A stretch of 13,370 nucleotides of DNA, taken from IMG/VR virus record IMGVR_UViG_2526164628_000013. The stretch is one strand, 5' to 3'. Each line of letters opens with the position of its first letter. Position 1 is the first letter of the stretch. Shown in pieces: positions 289 to 12,727 of the stretch. This DNA comes from a virus. Lineage: Duplodnaviria; Heunggongvirae; Uroviricota; Caudoviricetes. The notes beneath the pieces were generated by a model. The model searched no databases and was not told where the DNA came from. It worked only from the letters and a program-made list of their open reading frames with translations. The position numbers and the translations under genes are program-made.

Positions 289-433
289 TTAACATCTGAC
301 TGACACCCTAAAAAGTTGATTTTCAGTCGTTTTACTGGCTTTTTGTACATTGGCGAATCACTCTTAAAAACATGTAAAAAAGGCGTAAAAACAGAATTTT
401 ATGCCTTTGCACCACAATGAATTAAAAGAGTTT

Positions 434-462
434 TTATTCTCATTACCACACTTCTGTAAAAT
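434..462 (+). promoter_or_regulatory. Candidate sigma70-like promoter upstream of alpA (TTATTC -17 bp- TAAAAT)
   Basis: -35-like TTATTC at 434-439 and -10-like TAAAAT at 457-462 with a 17-bp spacer; motif match only. Confidence 0.2.
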
Positions 463-568
463 GACCGCCGCCAGTGTTTGCCATTCCATAAACACCCTGA
501 CACAATCCGACGCACCACAACACAATAGGACACCAAATAACTCTTTAAGAAATATCAAAGGGGGAATT

Positions 569-757
569 GTGTTAAGCACAGATCGCTTTATACGTGAAAA
601 AGAATGTCAGCAACTTACAGGCCTGAGCCGTTCATGTCGGTACCGCCTGGAAAAAACCGGACAATTCCCATCACGGCGTAAGCTCGGCGGTCGTTCCGTT
701 GGCTGGTCTTTATCCGAAGTTCTGGCATGGAAGGAAAGCTGCGAGGCAGTTCACTAA
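569..757 (+). CDS. alpA: AlpA-family phage regulatory protein (winged-helix, Xis-like)
   Basis: C-terminal part of ORF 401..757 reads ...LTGLSRSCRYRLEKTGQFPSRRKLGGRSVGWSLSEVLAWKE, matching the AlpA pattern. GTG at 569 is preceded by SD AAAGGGG (557-564); this gives ~62 aa, typical AlpA size. The longer 401 start is judged an artefactual extension. Confidence 0.75.
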   Translation: MLSTDRFIREKECQQLTGLSRSCRYRLEKTGQFPSRRKLGGRSVGWSLSEVLAWKESCEAVH

Positions 758-809
758 TCAGGCTGGCGGCACACCGCCGCCACCCATCCACTAATACAGA
801 GATCTAACC

Positions 810-2000
810 ATGAATACTGGATATTCTCCCGAACAAGGGCGGGGCTTCGTTCGTCCTGAAAAACAGAATCTGCAAAATTTTGCCGAAATTATTCCGGTTA
901 TTTCCGGCCTTACTGGCGGGAGTGAAACCAATATTGTTAACGCCAGAGCGTTGCAGATGTTTGATGATAAAAAGGGAGTAAATTTAACTTACACCCCTGA
1001 CGGCAATCAGAATATGAGCATTATCTCTGAGTCAGGTTTCTACAAACTAATAAAAACAAAAAGCGCCCCGTTCCCGGAGCGCCTTTGTGAACAATTAACC
1101 TACTGCGCAAAAAATGAATCTGAGCAGTGGGATTATATCAACCGTGTGGCGAAGCGCCACAATTGCCGGATAACAGGCAAAACAAAGGCCACCCGCTACG
1201 GTGGCCCCTCGACACAAGCTACACGTTATCCCCAACGCATGAGCATCACCAACAATGCCACATTTGCGGCTGGTGGGCAATGTGATCAGTCAGATTTGGT
1301 TCGTTCCAAGGTTTGCAACGAGAGCTTTTTCCTGTGCTCTTTAAGGAATTTCTCAAGAGCAAAAGCACATGGCGCGAATCTTTCTGATTCATGCTCTATC
1401 TTTCTGCGCCGTCTTTTCCGTGCCGGTGATAATGTTTTGGTCAATTCTTTATCGGTCATTGTGTTGTCCTGCATAGCAATGCGCCGTAATACCTTACACC
1501 ACGGCGCTGATGGTGATTACTCTGGTTCTTTGGTCTTGCGACGCTGGAGTTCTTCGCGTGCAACGGTGACAAGCTGCCCGATTTCTTCCGCTGCTTTGAT
1601 GCCGATTTGTTCGACCTTAGCCAGGGCATCCAGTGACGACACAAGGGGATTTTCTCCGCTGCCTTCTGCTTGGCGGCGGGCTATTTCTCCGCGCATGGCG
1701 GTTACGATAAATCCGGCATTGCTTTCGCCGTCCAGCTTAACGGATTCCATCCCTTGCATAACATCTAGTGGGACTCTGACAGTTGTCAGTTGTGATTTTG
1801 CGTTTTTGTTAGCCGTTGCCATTTCTGAAACTCCTAATCATCGGTGTGTTTCAGTATACACAAAAAAAGAAATACAAAAAGCCTTGACGTGTGTTTCATG
1901 CGCTCATAACATGAAACACACCAAAAGAATTGTTGAAATACAAAGAGCAACGCCCCGCAGTGCCGGAAACACATACGGGGCGTCTAACCACCAACGATAG
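810..2000 (+). CDS. Hypothetical ORF; only the first ~155 codons (810..~1280) look protein-like, the rest is an open frame antisense to minus-strand genes and an operator region
   Basis: 396-codon open frame. N-terminal part has balanced composition; from ~1280 the translation becomes S/L/R/C-rich, typical of antisense reading, and it overlaps the RHH-like gene (1517..1822) which has a strong SD. Weak SD at 810. Confidence 0.3.
   Translation: MNTGYSPEQGRGFVRPEKQNLQNFAEIIPVISGLTGGSETNIVNARALQMFDDKKGVNLTYTPDGNQNMSIISESGFYKLIKTKSAPFPERLCEQLTYCAKNESEQWDYINRVAKRHNCRITGKTKATRYGGPSTQATRYPQRMSITNNATFAAGGQCDQSDLVRSKVCNESFFLCSLRNFSRAKAHGANLSDSCSIFLRRLFRAGDNVLVNSLSVIVLSCIAMRRNTLHHGADGDYSGSLVLRRWSSSRATVTSCPISSAALMPICSTLARASSDDTRGFSPLPSAWRRAISPRMAVTINPALLSPSSLTDSIPCITSSGTLTVVSCDFAFLLAVAISETPNHRCVSVYTKKEIQKALTCVSCAHNMKHTKRIVEIQRATPRSAGNTYGASNHQR
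1286..1459 (-). CDS. Small basic hypothetical protein (MTDKELTKTLSPARKRRRRKIEHES...)
   Basis: Minus-strand ORF downstream of the RHH-like gene; internal ATG at 1459 has AGGA 7 nt upstream; K/R-rich. Could be spurious. Confidence 0.3.
   Translation of the reverse strand: MTDKELTKTLSPARKRRRRKIEHESERFAPCAFALEKFLKEHRKKLSLQTLERTKSD
1517..1822 (-). CDS. Putative small DNA-binding regulator (possibly ribbon-helix-helix), divergent from the rightward operon
   Basis: 101-aa ORF with protein-like composition; ATG at 1822 preceded on the minus strand by AGGAG with 8-nt spacer; its upstream region carries the palindromic operator at 1889-1921. Fold assignment is inference. Confidence 0.6.
   Translation of the reverse strand: MATANKNAKSQLTTVRVPLDVMQGMESVKLDGESNAGFIVTAMRGEIARRQAEGSGENPLVSSLDALAKVEQIGIKAAEEIGQLVTVAREELQRRKTKEPE
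1884..1921 (+). promoter_or_regulatory. Rightward promoter (TTGACG -17- TAACAT) overlapped by a perfect 12-bp inverted repeat operator
   Basis: TTGACG 1884-1889, TAACAT 1907-1912. GTGTGTTTCATG (1889-1900) and CATGAAACACAC (1910-1921) are exact reverse complements with a 9-bp spacer; a third half-site GTGTGTTTCA lies at 1844-1853. Confidence 0.5.
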
Positions 2001-2019
2001 CAAGATTATCGAGGCTGCT

Positions 2020-2226
2020 ATGAGAAATCATACCATACACCCGCAAGGGCGGGACTCGCACAACCTGAATAAATACATCTGGCGTTTTATCGCCCTGAGT
2101 ACGGCACAACCGCGCGTGATTACCATTGAGGCCACCAGCGAACAGGAAGCCCGTCAGCAATCACCGGCTGGCTGCGTGATGGTATTCGCCGCCCGTATTC
2201 GTCAGGGGGTGCACCATGTGCAATAA
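2020..2226 (+). CDS. Small hypothetical protein, first gene of the rightward operon (weak resemblance to Icd/Ash-like proteins of P4-type islands, unverified)
   Basis: ATG 2020 preceded by GAGG (2011-2014); MRNHTIHPQGRDSHNLNKYIWRFIALSTAQPRVITIEATSEQEARQQSPAGCVMVFAARI... Family call from memory only. Confidence 0.45.
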   Translation: MRNHTIHPQGRDSHNLNKYIWRFIALSTAQPRVITIEATSEQEARQQSPAGCVMVFAARIRQGVHHVQ

Positions 2227-2476
2227 CACCCGTCCGGACGCAGCCGCCGAAGCAATCAAAACACTGATTGATGCGCTGATTGATATTTCTGTTATCGCGG
2301 ACAGGGCGCATAAGCACGCTACCAGTGAAACAGAATATGCCGGGGCTTTCGTTCCTCATTCGCTGGCGGTTATGCAACTTAGTGCGGATATGGCGCTGAA
2401 TGAGGCCAAAGCCATCCTGATTGCTGATTGTGAAAATGGGGGGGGGTTATGCGTGATGATCGTTTTAATTCCCTGA
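2216..2476 (+). CDS. Hypothetical small protein
   Basis: ATG 2216 with AGGGGG SD 6 nt upstream; start overlaps the preceding stop; ends across the G9 tract. Confidence 0.4.
   Translation: MCNNTRPDAAAEAIKTLIDALIDISVIADRAHKHATSETEYAGAFVPHSLAVMQLSADMALNEAKAILIADCENGGGLCVMIVLIP
2438..2446. repeat. G9 homopolymer tract at the junction of two overlapping ORFs
   Basis: Nine consecutive G read directly at 2438-2446; encodes GGG in ORF 2216..2476 and sits 2 nt upstream of ATG 2449. Confidence 0.9.
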
Positions 2477-2682
2477 AACAGGAATTTTCCGGCGTTCCTG
2501 ATGATGCGGCTGATGCGCTTTCGTCAATGCCAGAGCTTATTAGAGCGGCTTTTTTCTTACTTTCCACGAGAGAATATAAATCAACGGGGCTTGATGTACT
2601 GAATATCGCCGCCGATTATGCGGAATATGTGGCAGAGGCGCGTTACAGAAGAAAATTTCCTGAGGATGTAAGCCATGCGTGA
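2449..2682 (+). CDS. Hypothetical small protein
   Basis: ATG 2449 immediately downstream of the G-rich tract (SD-like); overlaps neighbours at both ends. Confidence 0.4.
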   Translation: MRDDRFNSLKQEFSGVPDDAADALSSMPELIRAAFFLLSTREYKSTGLDVLNIAADYAEYVAEARYRRKFPEDVSHA

Positions 2683-2908
2683 TATTTACCACGAAACAAT
2701 AGACCGCGCATTTCTTGCACTTTCTCACAGTGAAAACATGCTGGAAATATTGCGCATATGGCTTGAAACACTTGGCGACAATGAACGCGACAAACAAAAA
2801 TCAAGAATTGCCACGGCATTAATAACGCTTCTTGAGCCTGTAATAATGGAACTGCAAGAAATAGATCTATTGCACGACAGATATAAAGAACAGCACACCG
2901 GAGAATAA
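2675..2908 (+). CDS. Hypothetical small protein (predicted helical)
   Basis: ATG 2675 overlaps the previous stop; GAGGA 8 nt upstream. Confidence 0.4.
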   Translation: MRDIYHETIDRAFLALSHSENMLEILRIWLETLGDNERDKQKSRIATALITLLEPVIMELQEIDLLHDRYKEQHTGE

Positions 2909-2913
2909 AAATA

Positions 2914-3213
2914 ATGAAACTTAAATATTCTGGCTTAACTGCCAGTGGCAACACTCACCCTAAATTTACGCGCGGTGATATTTACCGCGACCAGTACGGC
3001 GGCACGGTAATGATTAAGGGCGTGGAAGAACGGCGCGTAATCTACCGCCGTGAAGGTTACGAATATGATTGCGTGATGCCTGTTTATCAGTTCCGGTGTG
3101 ATTTTTCTCTGGTACAGACCGCGCCGCATAACGTGCCCACCAGCAACGCCAGGGCACGGGCAAACATCCAGAAGCTGAAAACCATGATTAACGGATTCAG
3201 GGGCAAGAAATGA
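2914..3213 (+). CDS. Hypothetical small protein immediately upstream of and overlapping the replication helicase gene
   Basis: ATG 2914; stop overlaps ATG 3210 of the next gene (ATGA-type coupling). Confidence 0.45.
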   Translation: MKLKYSGLTASGNTHPKFTRGDIYRDQYGGTVMIKGVEERRVIYRREGYEYDCVMPVYQFRCDFSLVQTAPHNVPTSNARARANIQKLKTMINGFRGKK

Positions 3214-4625
3214 AAAGCGCACCGAACTTAAAAAAACAGCCTTACGACAAAATGACCGAAGTCATTATTTTTGCGGGTAGTGATGCCTGGGCGCACGCGA
3301 AACAATGGCAGGAGCAGGACGGGCGACTTGCTGGCGACAATGTTCCGCCTGTATGGCTGGGAGACAGCCAGCTTGACGAACTGGCAGGCCTGAAAATTAT
3401 CGACGATGGTCGCTATTGTGTCCGACTGTACAAGGCAGGCCACATCAAGCCGTCAAATATTAATGCCATCGGGCAAAAGCTGGCGGCGGCAGGTGTACGG
3501 GATGCGAATTATTACCCTGAGGGAATGCACAGTCAGAAGCTGGAGAACTGGCACGACTACCTGCAACGGATCCGCGAACAGGCAGAGCGCGGGGAAATAC
3601 TTACTGACGAGCAATACAGCCAGCGAAAAACCACGCTACCAATGAGCATTGGATCTGCAGGGTACGACACACAGCTTGATTATGTCGTTAAGGGCGTGAT
3701 TCCGGCTAATTCATTGTGCAGCACATACGGCGCGAGCGGTTCCTATAAATCGTTCCTCGCGTGTTCCTGGGCGTGTCATGTTGCCACGGGTCGCCACTGG
3801 GGAGGTCGCAGGGTGGCGCATGGTTCGGTGATGTATGTTGTCGGTGAAGGTGGCATTGGTGTCCCCCGCCGTATCAAGGCATGGGAAATCGTTAATGATG
3901 AACGGGTGAAAAATCTGTACCTGGTAAACCGCCCGATTTTTCCTGCAGCCCAGTTTGATGTTGATGAAATGGTTATCGCATCCCGCCAGGTTGAACGGGA
4001 AACGGGTAAACCGGTACGCATGATTATTCTGGATACGCTGGCGCGTTGCTTTGGCGGTAATGATGAAAATGACGCGCGGGATATGGGGGCGTTTATCCGT
4101 GGATGTGACGAACTGAAACGACGCACAGGGGCCACGGTGCTGGTGGTTCACCATTCCGGCAAGGATGAAACAAAAGGGGCGCGTGGTTCCAGTGCATTTC
4201 GTGCATCTCTGGACGCTGAGTACCGGATCCGCCGCGAAGGCGCGGACAGTGAGGCCCTGGTTATCTCCTGCACCAAAATGAAGGACGCGGAGGAACTGAA
4301 AGAGGCTGCATATGATTTACGTGTGGTGGAGCTTTTTACCGACGCTGACAAGGAGTTAATCACGTCGCTGGTGGTTGTGGATAAGCCGCGCCCACCCGTT
4401 GAACTGGAGCGCATCGAGGAGGCCGGAAACAAGACGGAGAATCACGCCGCACTATGGGGCTGTATCCGGTCACGCACACAGCGCGGCGATAAATGCACTA
4501 TCCCGTTGTTGCGCGATGATATGAAAAAGCTGGGGTATGAGATGAAAAACTTCCGGCGCTGGCTGTACAAGCTGGAAAGAGACGGCGTTATCGCTATTGA
4601 CGGTGATGATGTGCGCCCACTGTAA
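3210..4625 (+). CDS. Replication protein: RepA/DnaB-like P-loop helicase (satellite/PICI pri-rep-like) with C-terminal winged-helix-like tail
   Basis: 471 aa. Walker A-like YGASGSYKS, RecA-fold signatures MIILDTLARCFGG and VLVVHHSGKD; basic C-terminal ~60 aa plausibly DNA-binding. Iteron array begins at its stop codon. Confidence 0.75.
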   Translation: MKSAPNLKKQPYDKMTEVIIFAGSDAWAHAKQWQEQDGRLAGDNVPPVWLGDSQLDELAGLKIIDDGRYCVRLYKAGHIKPSNINAIGQKLAAAGVRDANYYPEGMHSQKLENWHDYLQRIREQAERGEILTDEQYSQRKTTLPMSIGSAGYDTQLDYVVKGVIPANSLCSTYGASGSYKSFLACSWACHVATGRHWGGRRVAHGSVMYVVGEGGIGVPRRIKAWEIVNDERVKNLYLVNRPIFPAAQFDVDEMVIASRQVERETGKPVRMIILDTLARCFGGNDENDARDMGAFIRGCDELKRRTGATVLVVHHSGKDETKGARGSSAFRASLDAEYRIRREGADSEALVISCTKMKDAEELKEAAYDLRVVELFTDADKELITSLVVVDKPRPPVELERIEEAGNKTENHAALWGCIRSRTQRGDKCTIPLLRDDMKKLGYEMKNFRRWLYKLERDGVIAIDGDDVRPL

Positions 4626-4826
4626 AAAGTGAGGCGCAAAAGTGAGGGGATAGCAGGAACTGAACAAAAAGCAACCGCGCCCCTCACTTTTCAATCTGTA
4701 TATAGGCTCAAAAGTGAGGAATAAAAAACACATTGAAAAACAACATATTAGAATCACAAAAAAACAAGGTTGGAAATCATGTGGGGAGCTTAAAAAGTGA
4801 GGCGAAAAAGTGGGGAGTAGTGGGGA
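4625..4826. repeat. Iteron array, putative replication origin: AAAAGTGAGG direct repeats plus one inverted copy and an AT-rich stretch
   Basis: AAAAGTGAGG at 4625, 4638, 4710, 4793; variant AAAAGTGGGG at 4806; inverted copy CCTCACTTTT at 4682-4691; AT-rich 4720-4770. Lies directly after the helicase gene. Confidence 0.6.
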
Positions 4827-5078
4827 ATGACCAGAAAAAGCAGAGATAAAACAGCACCAAAATATCGCGCATTAGACATGACAGAGCACGCCTTAAAGGT
4901 GGCAATCAGAACGATAGACCGCCACGCCGGAGAAGGATACGCGAAAGCGCATCCCGAACTGATAAGCGCATTCATGACCACGGCGGCGGCAAATTTTGCC
5001 ACACTGACAGAACGGGAGATTGCCGAAGCGGAACAGGTGACAACCATCAACGTTAAAACCGGAGAGCAGACAGCATGA
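4827..5078 (+). CDS. Hypothetical protein between ori and ssb
   Basis: 83-aa ORF; stop overlaps ATG of the SSB-like gene (ATGA at 5075-5078). Confidence 0.45.
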   Translation: MTRKSRDKTAPKYRALDMTEHALKVAIRTIDRHAGEGYAKAHPELISAFMTTAAANFATLTEREIAEAEQVTTINVKTGEQTA

Positions 5079-5497
5079 CAGCACAGATAGCGGCTTACGG
5101 GCGGCTGGTGGCTGACCCGCAGTTAAAGACCACCAGCAAGGGTACACAAATGACGATGGCGAGTATGGCGGTCCCACTTCCGTGCAGCCAGGCAGATGAC
5201 GGAACGGCGACGATGTGGTTATCCGTCCTGGCGTTTGGCAGACAGGCCGAAGCACTGGCAAAGCACCGCAAGGGTGAACTCCTGAGCGTGGCGGGTAACA
5301 TGCAGGTAAGCCAGTGGACAGGCCAGAACGGCGAAACGCGGCGGGGCTGGCAGGTTATCGCAGACAGCGTAATCAGTGCGCGAACGGCGCGACCGGGCGG
5401 CAAAAAAGGTCAGCAGGGGCAGGCCACTGACGCACTGAACAGGGCAAAACAACAGTCGGGGAATGATGATCCGTACGGCGATAATATACCGTTTTAA
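5075..5497 (+). CDS. ssb: Single-stranded DNA-binding protein-like (OB fold with acidic ...DDPYGDNIPF tail)
   Basis: 140 aa. N-terminal ~100 aa align by eye to E. coli SSB OB-fold segments (GRLVADPQL..., WLSVLAFGRQAEALAKHRKGELLSVAGNMQVSQWTGQNGETR...). C-terminus ends DNIPF, like the SSB DDDIPF tail. Confidence 0.65.
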   Translation: MTAQIAAYGRLVADPQLKTTSKGTQMTMASMAVPLPCSQADDGTATMWLSVLAFGRQAEALAKHRKGELLSVAGNMQVSQWTGQNGETRRGWQVIADSVISARTARPGGKKGQQGQATDALNRAKQQSGNDDPYGDNIPF

Positions 5498-5514
5498 ATT
5501 CTGCAAACAAAAAG

Positions 5515-5543
5515 ATGCCGGAAAAAAATAGATTTTCCGGCAT
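5515..5543. terminator. Perfect 11-bp stem hairpin (ATGCCGGAAAA / TTTTCCGGCAT, 7-nt loop) between replication and capsid modules
   Basis: Read directly. A U-tract follows the stem only on the minus-strand transcript; on the + strand an A-tract precedes it. Orientation ambiguous. Confidence 0.4.
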
Positions 5544-5714
5544 GCTACATAAATCCCGACCAAAGGAAGTAAATACATTAACACGAATTATCAGCACTGA
5601 AGTTGTCACGGCATATTTTATACAACATTGCACTTGGTTGCATGTATTCGCATAGCAGACATCGGTAATAGAATATATTCACAATTATTTGTAATGAATG
5701 TAAAGAGGATGAGT

Positions 5715-6755
5715 ATGGTTGATTTATATTCGCCTACACAGCTTGTGCAGGTGGCTAATGCTGAAGATGTGCAAAAAAAATTAAATGCGTTGTTTACCAG
5801 TTTGTTTTTCACTCGCTCGGTAATGTTTGAATCGAGAGACATTATTCTTGATACGATCGACGATCCAAATATCCCGATCGCGGCGTTTTGCTCTCCTATG
5901 GTGGGCAGTAAAGTTTCACGAGATGAGGGATACGAATCAAAAACAATTCGCCCTGGCTATATGAAACCGAAAAGCAGCATTGATCCAAATAAGTTAGCTG
6001 TGCGCCCTGCTGGTGTATCACCTGAACAATACAATGCTTTTGGGGCGCGTAATATTAAAGTTAAACAGGCGATTGTAAATCAGGCTAAAGCTATACGTGC
6101 ACGTATTGAATGGCTTGCTGTTCAGGCAATCACAACGGGGAAAAATATCATTGAGGGCGATGGTATTGAACGTTATGAACTGGACTGGAATATAAAACCA
6201 CAAAATATTATCACGCAGTCTGGCGGTGCTGAGTGGTCAGGTAAGGATAAAGAAACTTTTGATCCAAATGATGATATTGAGAGCTACGCAGAATTTAGTG
6301 AGGGCGTCACTAATATCATCATTATGGGCGGTAATGTATGGAAGAAATACCGTTCATTCAGAGCGATAAAAGAGGCTCTGGATACCCGCCGTGGTTCTAA
6401 TTCCGAACTGGAAACGGCCCTTAAAGACCTTGGTGATTCGGTGAGTTTTAAAGGGTATATGGGCGATGTTGCGATTGTTGTTTACAGCGGACGTTATACC
6501 GACGAGGACGGAACTGAAAAACATTTCCTTGATCCTGATTTGATGGTGCTTGGCAATACGGCTCTTCAGGGGATTGTCGCCTATGGCGGTATTCAGGATC
6601 CGGAGCTAACCCGAATGGGGCTGACTAAAGCCGAACTTGCACCGAAAAACTATATTGTGCCTGGTGATCCGGCTATTGAGTACGTACAAACGCACTCTGC
6701 ACCACAGCCAATACCGGCCCGCATCAATCGTTTTGTTACCGTTCGCATTGGCTAA
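5715..6755 (+). CDS. Major capsid protein, phage lambda gpE family
   Basis: Internal ATG 5715 with SD AAAGAGG (5702-5708). Long blocks match lambda gpE as recalled (NIITQSGGAEWSGKDKETFDPNDDIESYA..., AIKEALDTRRGSNSELETALKDLG..., YMGDVAIVVYSG..., MVLGNTA). About 346 aa. Confidence 0.85.
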   Translation: MVDLYSPTQLVQVANAEDVQKKLNALFTSLFFTRSVMFESRDIILDTIDDPNIPIAAFCSPMVGSKVSRDEGYESKTIRPGYMKPKSSIDPNKLAVRPAGVSPEQYNAFGARNIKVKQAIVNQAKAIRARIEWLAVQAITTGKNIIEGDGIERYELDWNIKPQNIITQSGGAEWSGKDKETFDPNDDIESYAEFSEGVTNIIIMGGNVWKKYRSFRAIKEALDTRRGSNSELETALKDLGDSVSFKGYMGDVAIVVYSGRYTDEDGTEKHFLDPDLMVLGNTALQGIVAYGGIQDPELTRMGLTKAELAPKNYIVPGDPAIEYVQTHSAPQPIPARINRFVTVRIG

Positions 6756-6764
6756 GGGGGAGCA

Positions 6765-6958
6765 ATGGCTACTCATTACACTGAACTCATGTCTGGCACT
6801 GAAGCACTGGTTACTACGCTGGGGATATTTTCAGCCAATAAAGGGGTAATACCTGCGTTTACGCCACTGATGCAGGAAGATGCAACTGGTGCGCTAGTGG
6901 TATGGGATGGAACGAGCGCAGGCAAAGCGGTTTATGTTTCCGCTGTACAAATCGACAC
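6765..6958 (+). pseudogene. Head decoration protein (lambda gpD-like), 3'-truncated by IS629
   Basis: SD AAGGGGGA then ATG 6765. ...AFTPLMQEDATGALVVWDGTSAGKAVYVSAVQ... resembles the lambda gpD core. Reading frame runs into the IS629 left end at 6959 after ~64 native codons (gpD is ~110 aa). Confidence 0.6.
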
Positions 6959-7012
6959 TGAACCGCCCCGGGAATCCTGGAGACTAAACTCCCTGAGAAA
7001 GAGGTAAACAGG

Positions 7013-7339
7013 ATGACTAAAAATACTCGTTTTTCCCCCGAAGTCCGTCAGAGGGCGATTCGTATGGTTCTGGAAAGTCAGGGCGAATATGACTCACAGT
7101 GGGCGGCAATTTGTTCCATTGCCCCAAAGATTGACTGTACACCGGAGACTCTGCGTGTCTGGGTACGCCAGCATGAGCGGGATACCGGAGGCGGTGATGG
7201 CGGGCTCACCACCGCTGAACGTCAGCGTCTGAAAGAGCTGGAACGTGAAAATCGTGAACTGCGCCGCAGTAACGATATCCTTCGCCAGGCTTCCGCTTAT
7301 TTTGCGAAGGCGGAGTTCGACCGCCTCTGGAAAAAGTGA
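7013..7339 (+). CDS. IS629 OrfA (transposase N-terminal/HTH component)
   Basis: [30 protein letters not shown]...[18 protein letters not shown], 108 aa. Confidence 0.85.
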
Positions 7340-8226
7340 TGCCACTGCTGGATAAGCTGCGTAAGCTGTACGGGGTCGGACCGGTATGCAGTGAACTACA
7401 TATTGCCCCGTCAACGTATTACCACTGTCAGCAACAGCGACATCATCCTGATAAACGCAGTGCCCGTGCGCAGCGCGATGACTGGCTGAAGAAAGAGATA
7501 CTGCGCGTATACGATGGGAATCATCAGGTATACGGTGTGCGTAAAGTCTGGCGTCAGTTGTTACGGGAAGGAATCAGGGTAGCCAGATGTACAGTGGCGC
7601 GCCTCATGGCGGTTATGGGACTTGCCGGTGTTCTCCGGGGTAAAAAGGTCCGCACTACCGTCAGCCGGAAAGCCGTTGCCGCAGGCGACCGCGTAAACCG
7701 TCAGTTTGTGGCAGAACGTCCTGACCAGTTGTGGGTGGCTGATTTTACTTACGTCAGCACATGGCAGGGGGTCGTCTATGTGGCGTTCATCATTGATGTG
7801 TTTGCCGGATACATCGTGGGGTGGCGGGTCTCATCGTCTATGGAAACGACATTCGTGCTGGATGCTCTGGAGCAGGCGTTATGGGCCCGTCGACCGTCCG
7901 GCACAGTCCATCACAGTGATAAAGGTTCTCAGTATGTATCGCTGGCCTACACACAGCGGCTTAAGGAAGCCGGATTACTGGCATCAACAGGAAGTACTGG
8001 TGACTCGTATGACAACGCGATGGCGGAGAGCATCAATGGCCTTTACAAAGCGGAGGTAATACACCGTAAGAGCTGGAAAAACCGGACAGAAGTGGAACTG
8101 GCCACACTCACGTGGGTGGACTGGTATAACAATCGACGATTGCTGGAAAGGCTGGGCCATATCCCACCGGCAGAAGCAGAAAAAGCTTATTATGCTTCCA
8201 TCGGAAACGATGATCTGGCAGCCTGA
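7336..8226 (+). CDS. IS629 OrfB (transposase catalytic component; -1 frame relative to orfA)
   Basis: 296 aa with rve-type integrase core (…[14 protein letters not shown]…[10 protein letters not shown]…[10 protein letters not shown]…); overlaps orfA end, typical of IS3-family frameshift organisation. Confidence 0.85.
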
Positions 8227-8280
8227 GTTCACAGATAAAACACTCTCCAGGAAACCCGGGGCGGTTCACAAAGTGTTTTT

Positions 8281-9831
8281 TCATCGCACACCGCCTTTTT
8301 CCTGATGAAAGCGGCAACGAGCAATCACGGATTGAATTTCAAATTGTGTGGTTTCATGGATTGAAATAAGTGGATTGCGGGCGTTACCAACACTGTCTGA
8401 AATGGAAATCAATTCATCGACTTCTTTAACTACACTCTCCAGCACCGCCTGATGGTCACCATCAGTAAAGGGGCGGAAATACAGGCAACCGTAGCAGCAG
8501 CGTACTTCACTGAATGGGCATTTGCCATCATCTCTGGAGCAACCGCCAATCCCATCATGCAACTCATCACCGATTATGCCGACCACGCGCTGGTCTTGCC
8601 ATTTCGTTGAAGAGGTCAGTTCACCAGTCAACATCATAGCCACCATGTTTTGCCATACCGGATTGATACCCAATGCTTTGGCTCGAATCAGTGCCAGTGC
8701 AGGCGTCGCCAGAATGTAATACTTGGCAACAGTAAGGGAGCTATGTCCCAGAATATGCGCAATTTCCTCGGCGCTGACCCCTTGCATAGCCAGTGAATGC
8801 CCCACGTTGTGGCGCAAGTCGGTCGGGGTAATGGTTGGCAAAGCCGCTTCGCCACGCTTTACGGCTGCCTGATAATCTGGCGGACTGAAACAGAGGAAGG
8901 CCTTGTTAATCGCTCTGGACACATTAAACGGTGCAGAGTTACTAAATTCAAATAGCTTGCCATCAGGTTTTAGTTGCGCTCGCTCGATATAGTGCCTAAT
9001 CAACGCGCCGATTTCAGCTGGAATCGCCAAAAACAGACGTTCAGTCGTTACGTGCCGCTGTTTGGCGTAAGGAAGGAGTAAGCTATATCGTATTAATCCG
9101 GTTTCGGAGTTTCGGGTATCAATACGTAAATCTTTTACCGCCAGCTTGGCCAGTTGTACCGGTCGGGCACCGGTGACATACGTCAGTCCCAGAATTACTG
9201 CATCTCGCATGGTGTTCAGACTGTAGTTTTCGCCATACCGAATCGCCACAGCCATTTCAAACAAGCCTTTACTGATCATGTTTTTTTCGAGGGGATCCAG
9301 AACATGATCAATTTCCTGATAGATTCCCCAGTCATGGGAGTGCGGGCGAGGGATGAATTCGAGGTCTTCATAATCTTCGAGGGTAAAACCAGGGAATGCT
9401 TCGGTACAGAGGATTTTTAGGCCGAAAATGATAAAGTAGAAATATTGAGGTTTAATTTCCTGAGTTTCGAGGTAATCTTTCAACACCGTAAAAGTGAAAG
9501 CAGATTTGCTTATGCAATGATCAGTTGCCAAAGACCACGCATGGAGTACCCCAGGAACCTGAGCTGGACACTTGGCAGATGCATAATGGAAGCAAATATA
9601 TTTGATTAATTGGTTGCTGATTTTATCCTGACGAAAGTGGGCATAGCAGCGGCTTCCTGAATAATCGAATACCCAACTGTCACTTGTTGAGCTGATATAT
9701 TTGTCATCAAAATGATCTGCCGATTTAAGATAAATACTAACTGGTATATTAACCTTTAAAATACTCTCAACAAATACAGGTGTGTAAATGTTGCTGTTCG
9801 ACGCATTTAACTGTTTATTGATTCGACTCAT
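8281..9831 (-). CDS. Large tyrosine recombinase (~516 aa) with extended N-terminal domain and ~135-aa C-terminal extension carrying a Cys cluster
   Basis: Box I-like LGLTYVTGARPVQLAKL, box II-like TDLRHNVGH and LGHSSLTVAKYY (catalytic Tyr). Start at ATG 9831 (GGAG 5 nt upstream); in-frame ATGs also at 9846 and 9855. Stop lies 12 bp from the IS629 right end. Confidence 0.7.
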   Translation of the reverse strand: MSRINKQLNASNSNIYTPVFVESILKVNIPVSIYLKSADHFDDKYISSTSDSWVFDYSGSRCYAHFRQDKISNQLIKYICFHYASAKCPAQVPGVLHAWSLATDHCISKSAFTFTVLKDYLETQEIKPQYFYFIIFGLKILCTEAFPGFTLEDYEDLEFIPRPHSHDWGIYQEIDHVLDPLEKNMISKGLFEMAVAIRYGENYSLNTMRDAVILGLTYVTGARPVQLAKLAVKDLRIDTRNSETGLIRYSLLLPYAKQRHVTTERLFLAIPAEIGALIRHYIERAQLKPDGKLFEFSNSAPFNVSRAINKAFLCFSPPDYQAAVKRGEAALPTITPTDLRHNVGHSLAMQGVSAEEIAHILGHSSLTVAKYYILATPALALIRAKALGINPVWQNMVAMMLTGELTSSTKWQDQRVVGIIGDELHDGIGGCSRDDGKCPFSEVRCCYGCLYFRPFTDGDHQAVLESVVKEVDELISISDSVGNARNPLISIHETTQFEIQSVIARCRFHQEKGGVR

Positions 9832-10237
9832 ATGCACTCCATTCATCGCATACATGGGAAAAGGTTGATTTCAGGGCTTCGTTATCAATCACAATTCGCT
9901 GAAGATTGGCCGTATTAGCCTGCTGAGATAGAAATCTTTTAGCGTAAAGATCAGGCATATGGCTATTGTGACTCCAACCGCCAAGTAGCCGTAATTCATC
10001 CTTGGCTTCATCCATCAATCCAACGATAGAAAAGTCTATGGCTGCCAAGTGTGAGTTGGCCTTAATTTTTTGAAGTTTATCACGATAAATACGTTGAAGT
10101 GTTAAATAAGCCCAAGTATGCCGCGTTATATGAGGCGAGATGCTTTCAATGGCATCATAATATTCATCTTTTTTATATTCAGGATACTGCACACTCATAA
10201 TGTCATCAATACGGGTAAAGATATCATAGACTGCATG

Positions 10238-10242
10238 GTATG
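10238..10242. repeat. IS2 target-site duplication, left copy (GTATG)
   Basis: GTATG immediately left of the IS2 end at 10243; identical to 11573-11577. Confidence 0.8.
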
Positions 10243-10333
10243 TAGACTGGCCCCCTGAATCTCCAGACAACCAATATCACTTAAATAAGTGATAGTCTTA
10301 ATACTAGTTTTTAGACTAGTCATTGGAGAGCAG

Positions 10334-10663
10334 ATGATTGATGTCTTAGGACCGGAGAAACGCAGACGGCGTACTACACAGGAAAAGATCGCTATTGTTC
10401 AGCAGAGTTTTGAACCGGGAATGACGGTCTCCCTTGTTGCCCGGCAACACGGTGTGGCAGCCAGCCAGTTATTTCTCTGGCGCAAGCAATACCAGGAGGG
10501 AAGTCTTACTGCTGTGGCCGCAGGAGAGCAGGTCGTTCCTGCCTCTGAACTTGCTGCTGCCATGAAGCAGATTAAAGAACTCCAGCGCCTGCTCGGCAAA
10601 AAACGATGGAAAATGAACTCCTTAAAGAAGCCGTTGAATACGGGCGTGCAAAAAAGTGGATAG
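10334..10663 (+). CDS. insC: IS2 OrfA (InsC), apparently frameshifted in this copy
   Basis: [18 protein letters not shown]...LQRLLGKK matches InsC, then the frame diverges (…[19 protein letters not shown]) while the expected InsC C-terminus [31 protein letters not shown] is encoded in the +1 frame from 10603. A-run at 10598-10603 is 6 A. Confidence 0.75.
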
Positions 10664-11561
10664 CGCACGCGCCCTTATTGCCCGGGGATGGGGAGTAAGC
10701 TTAGTCAGCCGTTGTCTCCGGGTGTCGCGTGCGCAGTTGCACGTAATTCTCAGACGAACCGATGACTGGAAAGATGGTCGCCGCAGCCGTCACTCAGATG
10801 ATACGGATGTGCTTCTCCGTATACACCATGTTATCGGAGAGCTGCCCACGTATGGTTATCGTCGGGTATGGGCGCTGCTTCGCAGACAGGCCGAACTTGA
10901 TGGTATGCCTGCGATCAATGCCAAACGTGTTTACCGGATCATGCGCCAGAATGCGCTGTTGCTTGAGCGAAAAACCGCTGTACCGCCATCGAAACGGGCA
11001 CATACTGGCAAAGTGGCCGTGAAAGAAAGCAATCAACGATGGTGCTCTGACGGGTTCGAGTTCCGCTGTGATAACGGAGAAAAACTGCGAGTCACGTTCG
11101 CGCTGGACTGCTGTGACCGTGAGGCACTGCACTGGGCAGTCACTACGGGCGGCTTCGACAGTGAAACAGTACAGGACGTAATGCTGGGAGCGGTGGAACG
11201 CCGCTTCGGCAACGAGCTTCCGGCGTCTCCAGTAGAGTGGCTGACGGATAATGGTTCATGCTACCGGGCTAATGAAACACGGCAGTTTGCCCGGATGTTG
11301 GGGCTTGAACCGAAGAACACGGCGGTGCGGAGTCCGGAGAGTAACGGCATAGCAGAGAGCTTCGTGAAAACGATAAAGCGTGACTACATCAGTATCATGC
11401 CTAAACCAGACGGGTTAACGGCAGCAAAGAACCTTGCAGAGGCGTTCGAGCATTATAACGAATGGCATCCGCATAGTGCACTGGGTTATCGCTCGCCACG
11501 GGAATATCTGCGGCAGCAGGCCAGTAATGGGTTAAGTGATAACAGGTGTCTGGAAATATAG
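10656..11561 (+). CDS. insD: IS2 OrfB (InsD transposase catalytic component)
   Basis: 301 aa, [34 protein letters not shown]... matches InsD as recalled; GTG start just after the A6G slippery motif (10650-10656). Confidence 0.85.
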
Positions 11562-11572
11562 GGGCAAATCCA

Positions 11573-11577
11573 GTATG
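11573..11577. repeat. IS2 target-site duplication, right copy (GTATG)
   Basis: GTATG immediately right of the IS2 end at 11572. Confidence 0.8.
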
Positions 11578-12727
11578 ACAGTGGCGGATGTAGTCTTTGG
11601 GTGGAAGTGAACAGAAAACTATGGGAGGCTTGAGGGCGGATTTTATGGATATATATATTTAGAAAATGAAAGTCCAGTTTATCTAATGCCAGCACCCGGT
11701 TTGCATAAACATTTTTTAATGAAGGCAATCTTTTTCGTTGATCCGAAACGTCGTCATCTACTGTGGTCACAATCAGGCTGAACTGATCCCCTCGGAGATT
11801 TGGTTTGATCGAATGACACTCCAAAAGCAGTAATTCACTGACACGCAATCCGTAATTTAAAAGCAATCTGCAAATCAGAAAATTACGTAGCTGGATTTCA
11901 CCAGCGGGGAAGGGATTGAGTGGGTTTTTCTTTGAAATTGAACCGGGTGTAATGATTTGGTAAAAAGCCATGACCATCTCAGCAGTCAGACTTCGAAAGC
12001 GTTTATGGGTCGTGCCATTGTTCATCTGACGAGAATGGGTAAGAGTACGGAATTCTGCCTTATGTATCGATAAACGTCCCGTTAACTGCGTGGCAAGTCG
12101 TGTAAGCTCTTTAGGCGTGCCATCTATATATCTCGGCGAGATATACGTGTTAATCAAATATCTGATAAAACGAATAACCGAATGTACATGCCTGATATTT
12201 GTACAACGTTGAGGCGTGGTCTGCGTAGTAGACCTTATGGTTAACGCTGGTACATATAAATGCGTATTTTCCAGATAATGAAAAAAGGCTGTAAGTTCAT
12301 CAATGGCAATCTAAGATATATTAACGGATATAAAAGCGGCTGGCGCGTGTGAGTATCCATCAGTGCCCATAAACGCTGCCGTTGGTTGATATTGAGTTGT
12401 GTAAGTATGAACACGCGGCACTTAACCTTATCAATGGTGTGGATATGAACAAAGTAACCGACAAACATAACGTCCTGCAAGAAGAAGATAGAGGGGTAGG
12501 TAAGTGTATGATTAATCGTATCCTGTGGCCGGTTATGAACTAAATGACCGACGGACTAAATTTAACATAATATACATTATGCGCACCAATGGTAAGGATG
12601 GCAGAATCTGGCGGGAATCGTTGACACTGGCCGTCAACTGGCTACTATCGACAGTGATTCAAAATCATCCGTTTCTCCAAACGAATCAGAATCAAATGTC
12701 TGTCAGCAGTAAGTGAACGGCCTGACC

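Follow-up and report, generated by a model that had tools for sequence, protein, structure and literature searches.

What is a long, cysteine-rich extension doing behind the catalytic tyrosine of a recombinase? This question is raised by a gene on the minus strand of a 13,370-nucleotide stretch of tailed-virus DNA (IMG/VR record IMGVR_UViG_2526164628_000013; hereafter, the window). The gene encodes GinB, the large catalytic recombinase of the GInts (Genomic Islands with three Integrases; Tn6571 family), which are defined by the ginABCD operon (PMC5385486, PMC10214605); RefSeq gives the product the name 'site-specific integrase' (WP_000086929.1). A first-pass annotation of the window had pointed to five cysteines in 19 residues and proposed that a metal-binding module was added to a recombinase. 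Our results support this proposal. Considering that the cysteines are conserved, that the extension is kept in relatives and that it yields a confident structural model, we judge it likely that the extension is a conserved metal-binding module. In its full form, to which we give slightly better than even credence, our reading is that the Cys4 site would be structural, would most probably hold zinc, and would fix a helical hairpin for subunit assembly or regulation.

The flagged peptide, GGCSRDDGKCPFSEVRCCYGCLYF, was confirmed in the open reading frame (ORF) of this gene, and the protein also contains the peptide GIGGCSRDDGKCPFSEVRCCYGCLYFRPF. The coordinates of all features are collected in Table 1, and residue numbers follow the numbering of the 524-amino-acid (aa) ORF. 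The codons of the five cysteines lie at 8539-8541 (C439), 8518-8520 (C446), 8497-8499 (C453), 8494-8496 (C454) and 8485-8487 (C457), and the flagged span runs exactly from the first to the last of these codons. The window protein has 12 cysteines in total, and five within 19 residues were reached in 0.3% of 200,000 position shuffles (P about 0.003). The length of the extension had been put slightly too low: it is present as described, with 144 residues after Tyr380 instead of about 135. An ORF on the plus strand over the same region (8522-8719) was set aside as a by-product of the minus-strand gene.

The clustering of the cysteines is much weaker evidence for this feature than their conservation. 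A homologue search among 5.8 billion proteins gave 280 matches. Full-length proteins of 500-530 aa with 40-91% identity are numerous among them and come from Enterobacterales, Pectobacterium, Aeromonas, Vibrio, Moraxella and Acinetobacter. When 21 and 70 full-length homologues (39-91% identity) were aligned, four of the five cysteines, C439, C446, C454 and C457, were invariant together with H468. The fifth, C453, is the first residue of the 'CC' pair and is C, S, N, A, T or G in relatives, which places it outside the conserved set; C514 is near-invariant in the close GinB subfamily only. When 62 sequences of the C-terminal domain reaching down to 24% identity were aligned, the invariant columns were one Gly, the four Cys and the His only. 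With a profile built from the last 143 residues, a search of 1.84 billion representative proteins (E ≤ 1e-3) gave 170 clusters. Nearly all proteins found are about 500 aa long and carry the domain at the extreme C-terminus, and the complete members among the 150 clusters listed of these 170 keep the signature (I/V)GxC-x3-10-C-x7-CYxC-xxFxP(F/W)-x3-4-H, in which the spacing of the second Cys pair is fixed as CxxC. A stand-alone gene for the domain was rejected because the short matches of this search were fragments; a word-indexed protein search with the domain alignment likewise returned fragments only.

The gene was identified by its surroundings. Around homologues in Citrobacter, Klebsiella and Acinetobacter, four co-directional and overlapping genes recur in a fixed order, namely a tyrosine recombinase of about 450 aa, a GinB of about 520 aa, a protein of about 780 aa without a Pfam match and a protein of about 147 aa. 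In a scan of one genome per species, which provided 41 loci, the ginABCD arrangement was present in nearly all loci with enough flank, with median lengths of 454 aa for GinA, 523 aa for GinB, 790 aa for GinC and 147 aa for GinD. The homologue matches in Enterobacterales, Pectobacterium, Aeromonas, Vibrio, Acinetobacter and Pseudomonas agree with the reported preference of GInts for Pectobacterium, Escherichia, Klebsiella and Aeromonas (PMC5385486, PMC10214605). Since both gene order and host range match those of published GInts, the window protein is GinB. The gene order holds for the exact window allele as well as for the gene family: an identical WP_000086929.1 is encoded on the conjugative Klebsiella plasmid NZ_CP138764.1 (locus L059 of our scan), where intact ginC (788 aa) and ginD (144 aa) follow. 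A gene 100% identical to the window ginB also occurs in 98 E. coli records. With the GinB described in the literature (Bardaji et al. 2017, PMC5385486; Idola et al. 2023, PMC10214605), the window protein shares the place in the operon and the catalytic residues R..R-H..H..Y, and there is no difference in family membership; the window copy lies in a degraded element. The operon is situated at one end of a GInt, and its third product, GinC, has a recombinase fold but lacks the catalytic residues. All four gin genes are required for integration and excision (PMC5385486, PMC10214605), and in E. coli, GInts are known to carry defence systems (PMC10121019).

Identity between published GInt families is only 24-40% (PMC5385486). 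In a BLAST comparison, the published GinB fragment of P. stutzeri DSM4166 matched nothing among enterobacterial GinB at E<1e-3; its matches were the family members P0254 and P0255 only, with 28-30% identity. The enterobacterial and Pseudomonas lineages are linked by profile and synteny. A relative 79% identical to the experimentally tested DSM4166 GinB is encoded on plasmid pT75-VIM and ends with VCGATAACHLDAPYTCYACGKFQPLLYANH, followed by helices; it scored 42 bits with domain profile A4 and 20 bits with the enterobacterial-type profile A3. Because this relative has the module, GinB probably carries it throughout the GInt lineages, also in the lineage that was studied experimentally.

These data decide on the possibility that the extension is non-functional, arising from read-through, a fused fragment or decay, with cysteines clustered by chance. 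On the one hand, the element in the window is a remnant with a broken ginA and deleted ginC and ginD, and the clustering taken alone gives only the P value of about 0.003 mentioned above. On the other hand, the extension with its invariant residues occurs in the complete members among the listed clusters and in 41 species loci inside intact operons, and it yields a confident structural model. Its length is also maintained, with a median of 144 residues after the Tyr in GinB (32 loci) versus 32 in GinA. The ginB stop overlaps the start of ginC as ATGA, and both the stop position and the overlap are conserved. Read-through, which the first-pass annotation had named as a possible artefact, is therefore excluded by an extension of equal length in intact relatives and by a stop that overlaps the next start. 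We regard the non-functional reading as scarcely credible, and it is refuted for the GinB family. The Cys4 extension is a family-wide feature of GinB recombinases and not a peculiarity of the window gene.

The catalytic part places window GinB in the tyrosine recombinase/phage integrase superfamily. It matches PF00589 with 40.8 bits (cut-off 27.1), and R231, K265, R348, H349, H371 and Y380 are invariant residues in the homologue alignment. T345 (codon 8821-8823) stands in place of the first His of the HxxR box. At this position of box II, the enterobacterial, Acinetobacter and Vibrio GinB lineage has Thr, Ser or Tyr, and Pseudomonas GinB has the canonical His (HRFRH). A sequence search of the Protein Data Bank (PDB) with the whole of GinB gave weak matches to catalytic domains only. 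In Foldseek comparisons, the model of the N-terminal ~375 aa resembled Cre, XerH, XerA and Tn1549 Int (E 1e-6 to 1e-4), and these recombinase targets are 266-356 residues long and end shortly after their Tyr. Considering that the N-terminal ~375 aa resembles ordinary two-domain recombinases, the extra 143 aa are an add-on. The only library model that covers the extension is NCBIfam NF041502 ('integrase_1'), which carries no functional or domain description. Window GinB matches profile positions 318-484 of 484 (E = 1e-27) and its isolated C-terminal domain matches positions 402-484 (E = 3e-10). With 97 bits against a cut-off of 350, the window protein lies outside that equivalog; the distant family member P0245 is a full member with 436 bits.

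Structure prediction of the C-terminal part, as the first-pass annotation had recommended, gave a well-defined domain. When full-length GinB was modelled by AlphaFold2 (AF2) with an alignment of 70 fairly close sequences, a confident two-domain recombinase was obtained with a mean predicted local distance difference test (pLDDT) score of 74, and residues 377-458 remained below 50. When the last 143 aa were modelled alone with a diverse alignment, the pLDDT was 86.5, the predicted template-modelling score (pTM) was 0.78, and residues 30-140 of the model were above pLDDT 90. The model begins with two linker helices of lower confidence, followed by three short strands that end in GGC (Cys439). 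A variable loop with C446, a short helix and turn with C454-x2-C457 and a further strand form the middle, and a long antiparallel helical hairpin that starts from H468 forms the end.

The arrangement of the cysteines also bears on the nature of the predicted metal site. A disulfide-rich motif was rejected as unlikely in a cytoplasmic DNA enzyme. A second candidate is an iron-sulfur (Fe-S) cluster such as [4Fe-4S], ligated by the four Cys in both GinB and GinC, which would be redox- or iron-responsive or would act as a structural 'staple'. The four invariant cysteines include a single CxxC pair, the first spacer varies from 3 to 10 residues, a Pro often stands directly after the second Cys, and the spacing in GinC (x8, x4-5, x2-5) is not the classical double-CxxC zinc pattern. 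Cys4 Fe-S clusters occur in DNA enzymes such as endonuclease III/MutY and the AddB/Dna2/Cas4-type nucleases. On the other hand, a 19-residue span with a CxxC turn is typical of zinc knuckles, no Fe-S family was matched by sequence or fold, and the operon shows no sign of cluster delivery or redox control. We therefore consider an Fe-S cluster quite improbable.

With zinc as the most likely metal, we propose that C439, C446, C454 and C457 would ligate a structural metal in a small knuckle, and that this knuckle would rigidify the base of the long C-terminal hairpin. The hairpin may serve as a protein-protein module for the assembly of GinB with its partners, or for its regulation by them. The linker of residues 382-410 may be the equivalent of the C-terminal segment that Cre-type recombinases donate to a neighbouring subunit. 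We suggest such a docking role because the linker is invariant at T384, P385, A388, R391, L395, G396, N398, M404 and T410 and yet is of low confidence in the monomer model.

Could the module instead bind DNA? In this alternative, it would be a DNA-binding domain for accessory or flanking attachment (att) sequence, or for single-stranded DNA, and would provide target specificity. GInts are highly site-specific and their ends are poorly conserved (PMC5385486), and the related strand-biased circularizing integrative elements (SE elements) recombine in a strand-biased manner (PMC10214605). The post-Tyr linker is slightly basic, with a mean charge of +1.2 and a positive charge in 66% of members. 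Large serine integrases and type IA topoisomerases are known cases of DNA binding by Cys4 zinc modules. Against this alternative, the Cys module has a mean net charge of about 0 (range -7 to +7 across members), 71% of members have an acidic hairpin, and in the window copy the two parts carry -4 and -3, respectively. The 62 aligned sequences have no invariant basic residue in the module, and no fold match to DNA-binding zinc domains was obtained. Since the domain is not basic, protein contacts are weakly favoured over DNA binding, and we consider the DNA-binding role unlikely.

A candidate for such protein contacts is found in the same operon. In all 41 loci, GinC carries, at about 120 residues from its C-terminus, a GxC-x8-C(P)-x4/5-C-x2-5-C cluster with helices behind it. 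Among 35 distinct GinC sequences, the Gly and the four Cys are invariant and the Pro is present in 97%; a comparable cluster was found in 0 of 35 GinA and 0 of 37 GinD. The GinC cluster spans loci of Alpha-, Beta- and Gammaproteobacteria, and examples are the genes at L059 8086-10452, L002 9548-11911, L007 9565-11886, L060 5894-8125 and L062 6122-8479. In a profile comparison by hhalign, the GinB and GinC modules aligned with their four Cys in register over 88-92 columns (P about 1e-4). This outranked a reversed control as well as all of 100 column-shuffled controls, the best of which had P 0.011. From this alignment, the two modules are probably homologous, and GinC would be the leading candidate partner of the GinB hairpin.

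The pattern extends to further classes of Proteobacteria. Blocks of ginC-ginD have been reported as not found in Alphaproteobacteria (PMC10214605), and our pattern reaches a Sinorhizobium plasmid in this class, as well as Noviherbaspirillum and Cupriavidus in the Betaproteobacteria. In Sinorhizobium alkalisoli NZ_CP034911.1 (L062 3500-8927), a recombinase, a split GinB with the Cys module, a 785-aa GinC with the cluster and a 151-aa protein lie together. On plasmid pHG1 of Cupriavidus necator H16, the gene after ginB (L061 6110-6724) encodes 204 aa that consist of the GinC-type Cys4-plus-helices module alone, which is either a minimal or a truncated GinC.

The presence of such modules on two proteins of one operon allows a bolder proposal. 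The Cys4-coiled-coil modules of GinB and GinC, as paralogues, may pair with each other and gate synapsis or directionality of a heteromeric recombinase, which would make them an independent counterpart of the serine-integrase switch. We put this forward tentatively, as possible but somewhat doubtful. If true, it could explain the need for four proteins without a separate excisionase. In a still more radical version, Fe-S clusters at the Cys4 sites would couple the mobility of the island to the iron or redox state.

Several results weigh against the reading of the extension as a zinc-held interaction module. The search for a zinc-ribbon or other Cys-rich family gave a negative answer: neither the last 140 nor the last 99 residues of GinB matched any Pfam family at E ≤ 10, and Foldseek against the PDB matched no known zinc-finger or zinc-ribbon fold (best E 2). 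The Cys4 pattern of the GinB module is zinc-like, and by these searches the module is neither a recognisable zinc ribbon nor assignable to a named zinc family. The similarity of the GinB and GinC modules is modest (hhalign probability 54-58%), the full-length GinB and GinC profiles do not match significantly (P = 0.54), and His468, which is invariant in GinB, has no conserved counterpart in GinC. The charge distribution is a weak argument against DNA binding.

In the window, ginB stands in the remnant of an element (Table 1), as seen by comparison with three intact or nearly intact copies (L001, L018 and L059); ginB itself is 100% identical to the intact ones. An IS2 with its characteristic termini TAGACTGGCCCC and TGGATTTGCCCC interrupts ginA, and the 5' part of the gene also lacks 136 bp at 12311/12312 relative to the three copies, so that the gene has two inactivating lesions. 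Whereas GInts have imperfect direct repeats (attL/attR) at their flanks, cargo DNA and an AT-rich 3' end, and are excised as circles, the 3' part of the element in the window is deleted, with the remainder of ginC, all of ginD and the cargo. An IS3-family insertion sequence lies between the ginC stump and unrelated DNA; its two ORFs are joined by frameshifting, and an AL1L pseudoknot is annotated in it by RefSeq. This element has no matching target duplication at its flanks, which implies that ginC, ginD and the cargo were lost by an IS-associated deletion. On the opposite side, the point where the alignments stop is probably the attL-side (left) end of the element. A GinB protein from the window copy alone cannot act without its partners, and with ginA interrupted and both ginC and ginD lost, the module cannot work here. 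The window ginB is thus an intact gene inside a dead element, and its ORF is presumably still intact because the decay is recent.

Table 1. Features of the window that belong to ginB, to its C-terminal module and to the surrounding remnant.
Feature	Position	Strand	Remarks
ORF	8281..9855	-	524 aa from first ATG; open to upstream ATG at 9855
ginB, large tyrosine recombinase of GInt	8281..9831	-	516 aa; RefSeq start M9 (9831); WP_000086929.1
Catalytic phage-integrase domain PF00589	8713..9222	-	Residues 212-381
Catalytic Tyr380 codon	8716..8718	-	Invariant column
Post-Tyr linker, TPALALIRAKALGINPVWQNMVAMMLTG	8626..8712	-	Residues 382-410; two short low-confidence helices, pLDDT 59-72
Cys4(-His) knuckle	8452..8625	-	Residues 411-468; strands and short helix; ends at H468; pLDDT 80-98
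Flagged Cys cluster C439..C457	8485..8541	-	Four Cys conserved, C453 variable
Antiparallel alpha-helical hairpin	8293..8454	-	Residues 468-521; C514 near its end
ginC remnant	8269..8284	-	First 16 nt; ATG overlapping ginB stop (ATGA)
IS3-family insertion sequence	6958..8268 (about)	+	Inverted repeats begin TGAACCGCCCCGGG; abuts ginC stump
ginA, ordinary-size tyrosine recombinase, inactivated	9815..12414	-	Alignment to L001, L018, L059; coordinates from L001 annotation
IS2 inserted in ginA	10243..11572	+	5-bp target duplication GTATG
Region upstream of ginA to end of GInt homology	12415..12590	-	Alignments of L001, L018, L059 stop at 12589/12590

Outside the remnant, the plus strand of the window carries a phage-satellite-like module at 401-6755, with AlpA (401-757), DUF4222 (2914-3213), an AAA_25 RepA/primase-helicase-like protein (3210-4625), SSB (5075-5497) and an E-family major capsid protein (5628-6755). 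It resembles an island of the PICI/P4 type that encodes its own capsid protein. Within this span, an ORF of 396 aa without a Pfam match (810-2000, plus strand), whose product is rich in Ser, Arg and Cys, is overlapped by an antisense ORF of 101 aa (1517-1822, minus strand).

Some of the compared loci have features of their own. On the contig CACSKA010000003.1 (L018), labelled Chryseobacterium sp. 18061, ginA and ginB are 96-97% identical to the E. coli copy, which suggests assembly contamination or a very recent transfer into a Bacteroidota genome. Beside the intact GInt of L059, the cargo at 11089-14975 encodes helix-turn-helix regulators, a 3'-5' exonuclease and a Mov34/MPN plus ThiF pair, and it may be a defence cassette. 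On pT75-VIM (CP113227.1, L060), a Pseudomonas-type ginB cut by ISPst3 is followed by ginC and ginD, and this GInt-type module lies directly upstream of a regulator gene and tmexC of the tigecycline-resistance efflux cluster.

For the window itself, the biological importance of the module is small, as the element is a fossil. GInts are common in Escherichia, Klebsiella, Pectobacterium, Pseudomonas and Acinetobacter, and their cargo includes defence systems, virulence clusters and resistance genes such as tmexCD-toprJ. The module, which is carried by GinB and GinC but by neither GinA nor GinD, offers a handle on a poorly understood four-protein recombination machine. The signature given above picks out GinB-type genes, and hence GInt-like elements, including those of Alpha- and Betaproteobacteria.

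In comparison with known systems, the GinB family was already described, and no description of its C-terminal Cys4-His knuckle and hairpin, or of the GinC counterpart, was found. The published GInt and SE work that we searched made no mention of zinc, cysteine or a GinB C-terminal domain, and a literature search for tyrosine recombinases with zinc ribbons led to serine integrases and an N-terminal ALOG/DIRS1 case only. The architecture was found neither in the recombinase literature searched nor among solved structures.

Among the closest systems are Tn554 and the SE elements, in which TnpB and IntB likewise belong to a pair of an ordinary and a large RHRY recombinase accompanied by small accessory proteins. 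TnpB of Tn554 has a length of 630 aa, and no protein of this length was among the 150 listed of the 170 matches of our domain search. GinD has been reported to resemble TnpC (PMC5385486; PMC10214605). On the other hand, the extra length of SE IntB is reported to be N-terminal (PMC9345347), as is that of actinobacterial Tn554-related recombinases (PMC3414803), whereas that of GinB is C-terminal; by these descriptions, the GinB module would be distinct from the extensions of TnpB and IntB. The SE gene order is intA-tfp-intB-srap (PMC10214605), whereas here the order is recombinase, large recombinase, fold protein and small protein. Tn554 (tnpA-tnpB-tnpC) is without a counterpart of GinC or Tfp, whereas a GinC gene of about 790 aa follows ginB in 41 of 41 loci. 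Hence, by these features, ginABCD is neither an SE nor a Tn554-type system. GinB, with its catalytic domain of a tyrosine recombinase, is not a large serine integrase either.

In terms of subunit communication, two comparisons are instructive. The segment behind the Tyr-bearing helix of Cre, XerCD and lambda Int packs on the neighbouring protomer and sets which subunits are active. The GinB linker occupies the equal place to helix N of Cre and to the tails of XerC/XerD and lambda Int, right after the Tyr-bearing helix. In Cre-like enzymes, this segment has about 10-20 residues and ends the protein, whereas GinB continues for about 115 residues with a folded domain that holds the putative metal site.

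The second comparison is with the large serine integrases (phiC31, Bxb1, LI/A118), whose zinc-domain/coiled-coil unit (ZD-CC) likewise is a C-terminal Cys4 module with a projecting antiparallel helical hairpin. These enzymes are of the serine catalytic class, unrelated to the tyrosine class of GinB, and Pfam and PDB searches gave no sequence or fold match between their ZD-CC and the GinB module. The coiled coil of serine integrases sits inside their zinc ribbon, which itself binds DNA, whereas in GinB the hairpin follows the knuckle. Through their coiled coils, serine integrases make the subunit contacts that set synapsis and directionality (PMC5499577). The GinB hairpin unit may be similar in function, and we consider the ZD-CC its best functional analogy, by likeness of arrangement and not by membership.

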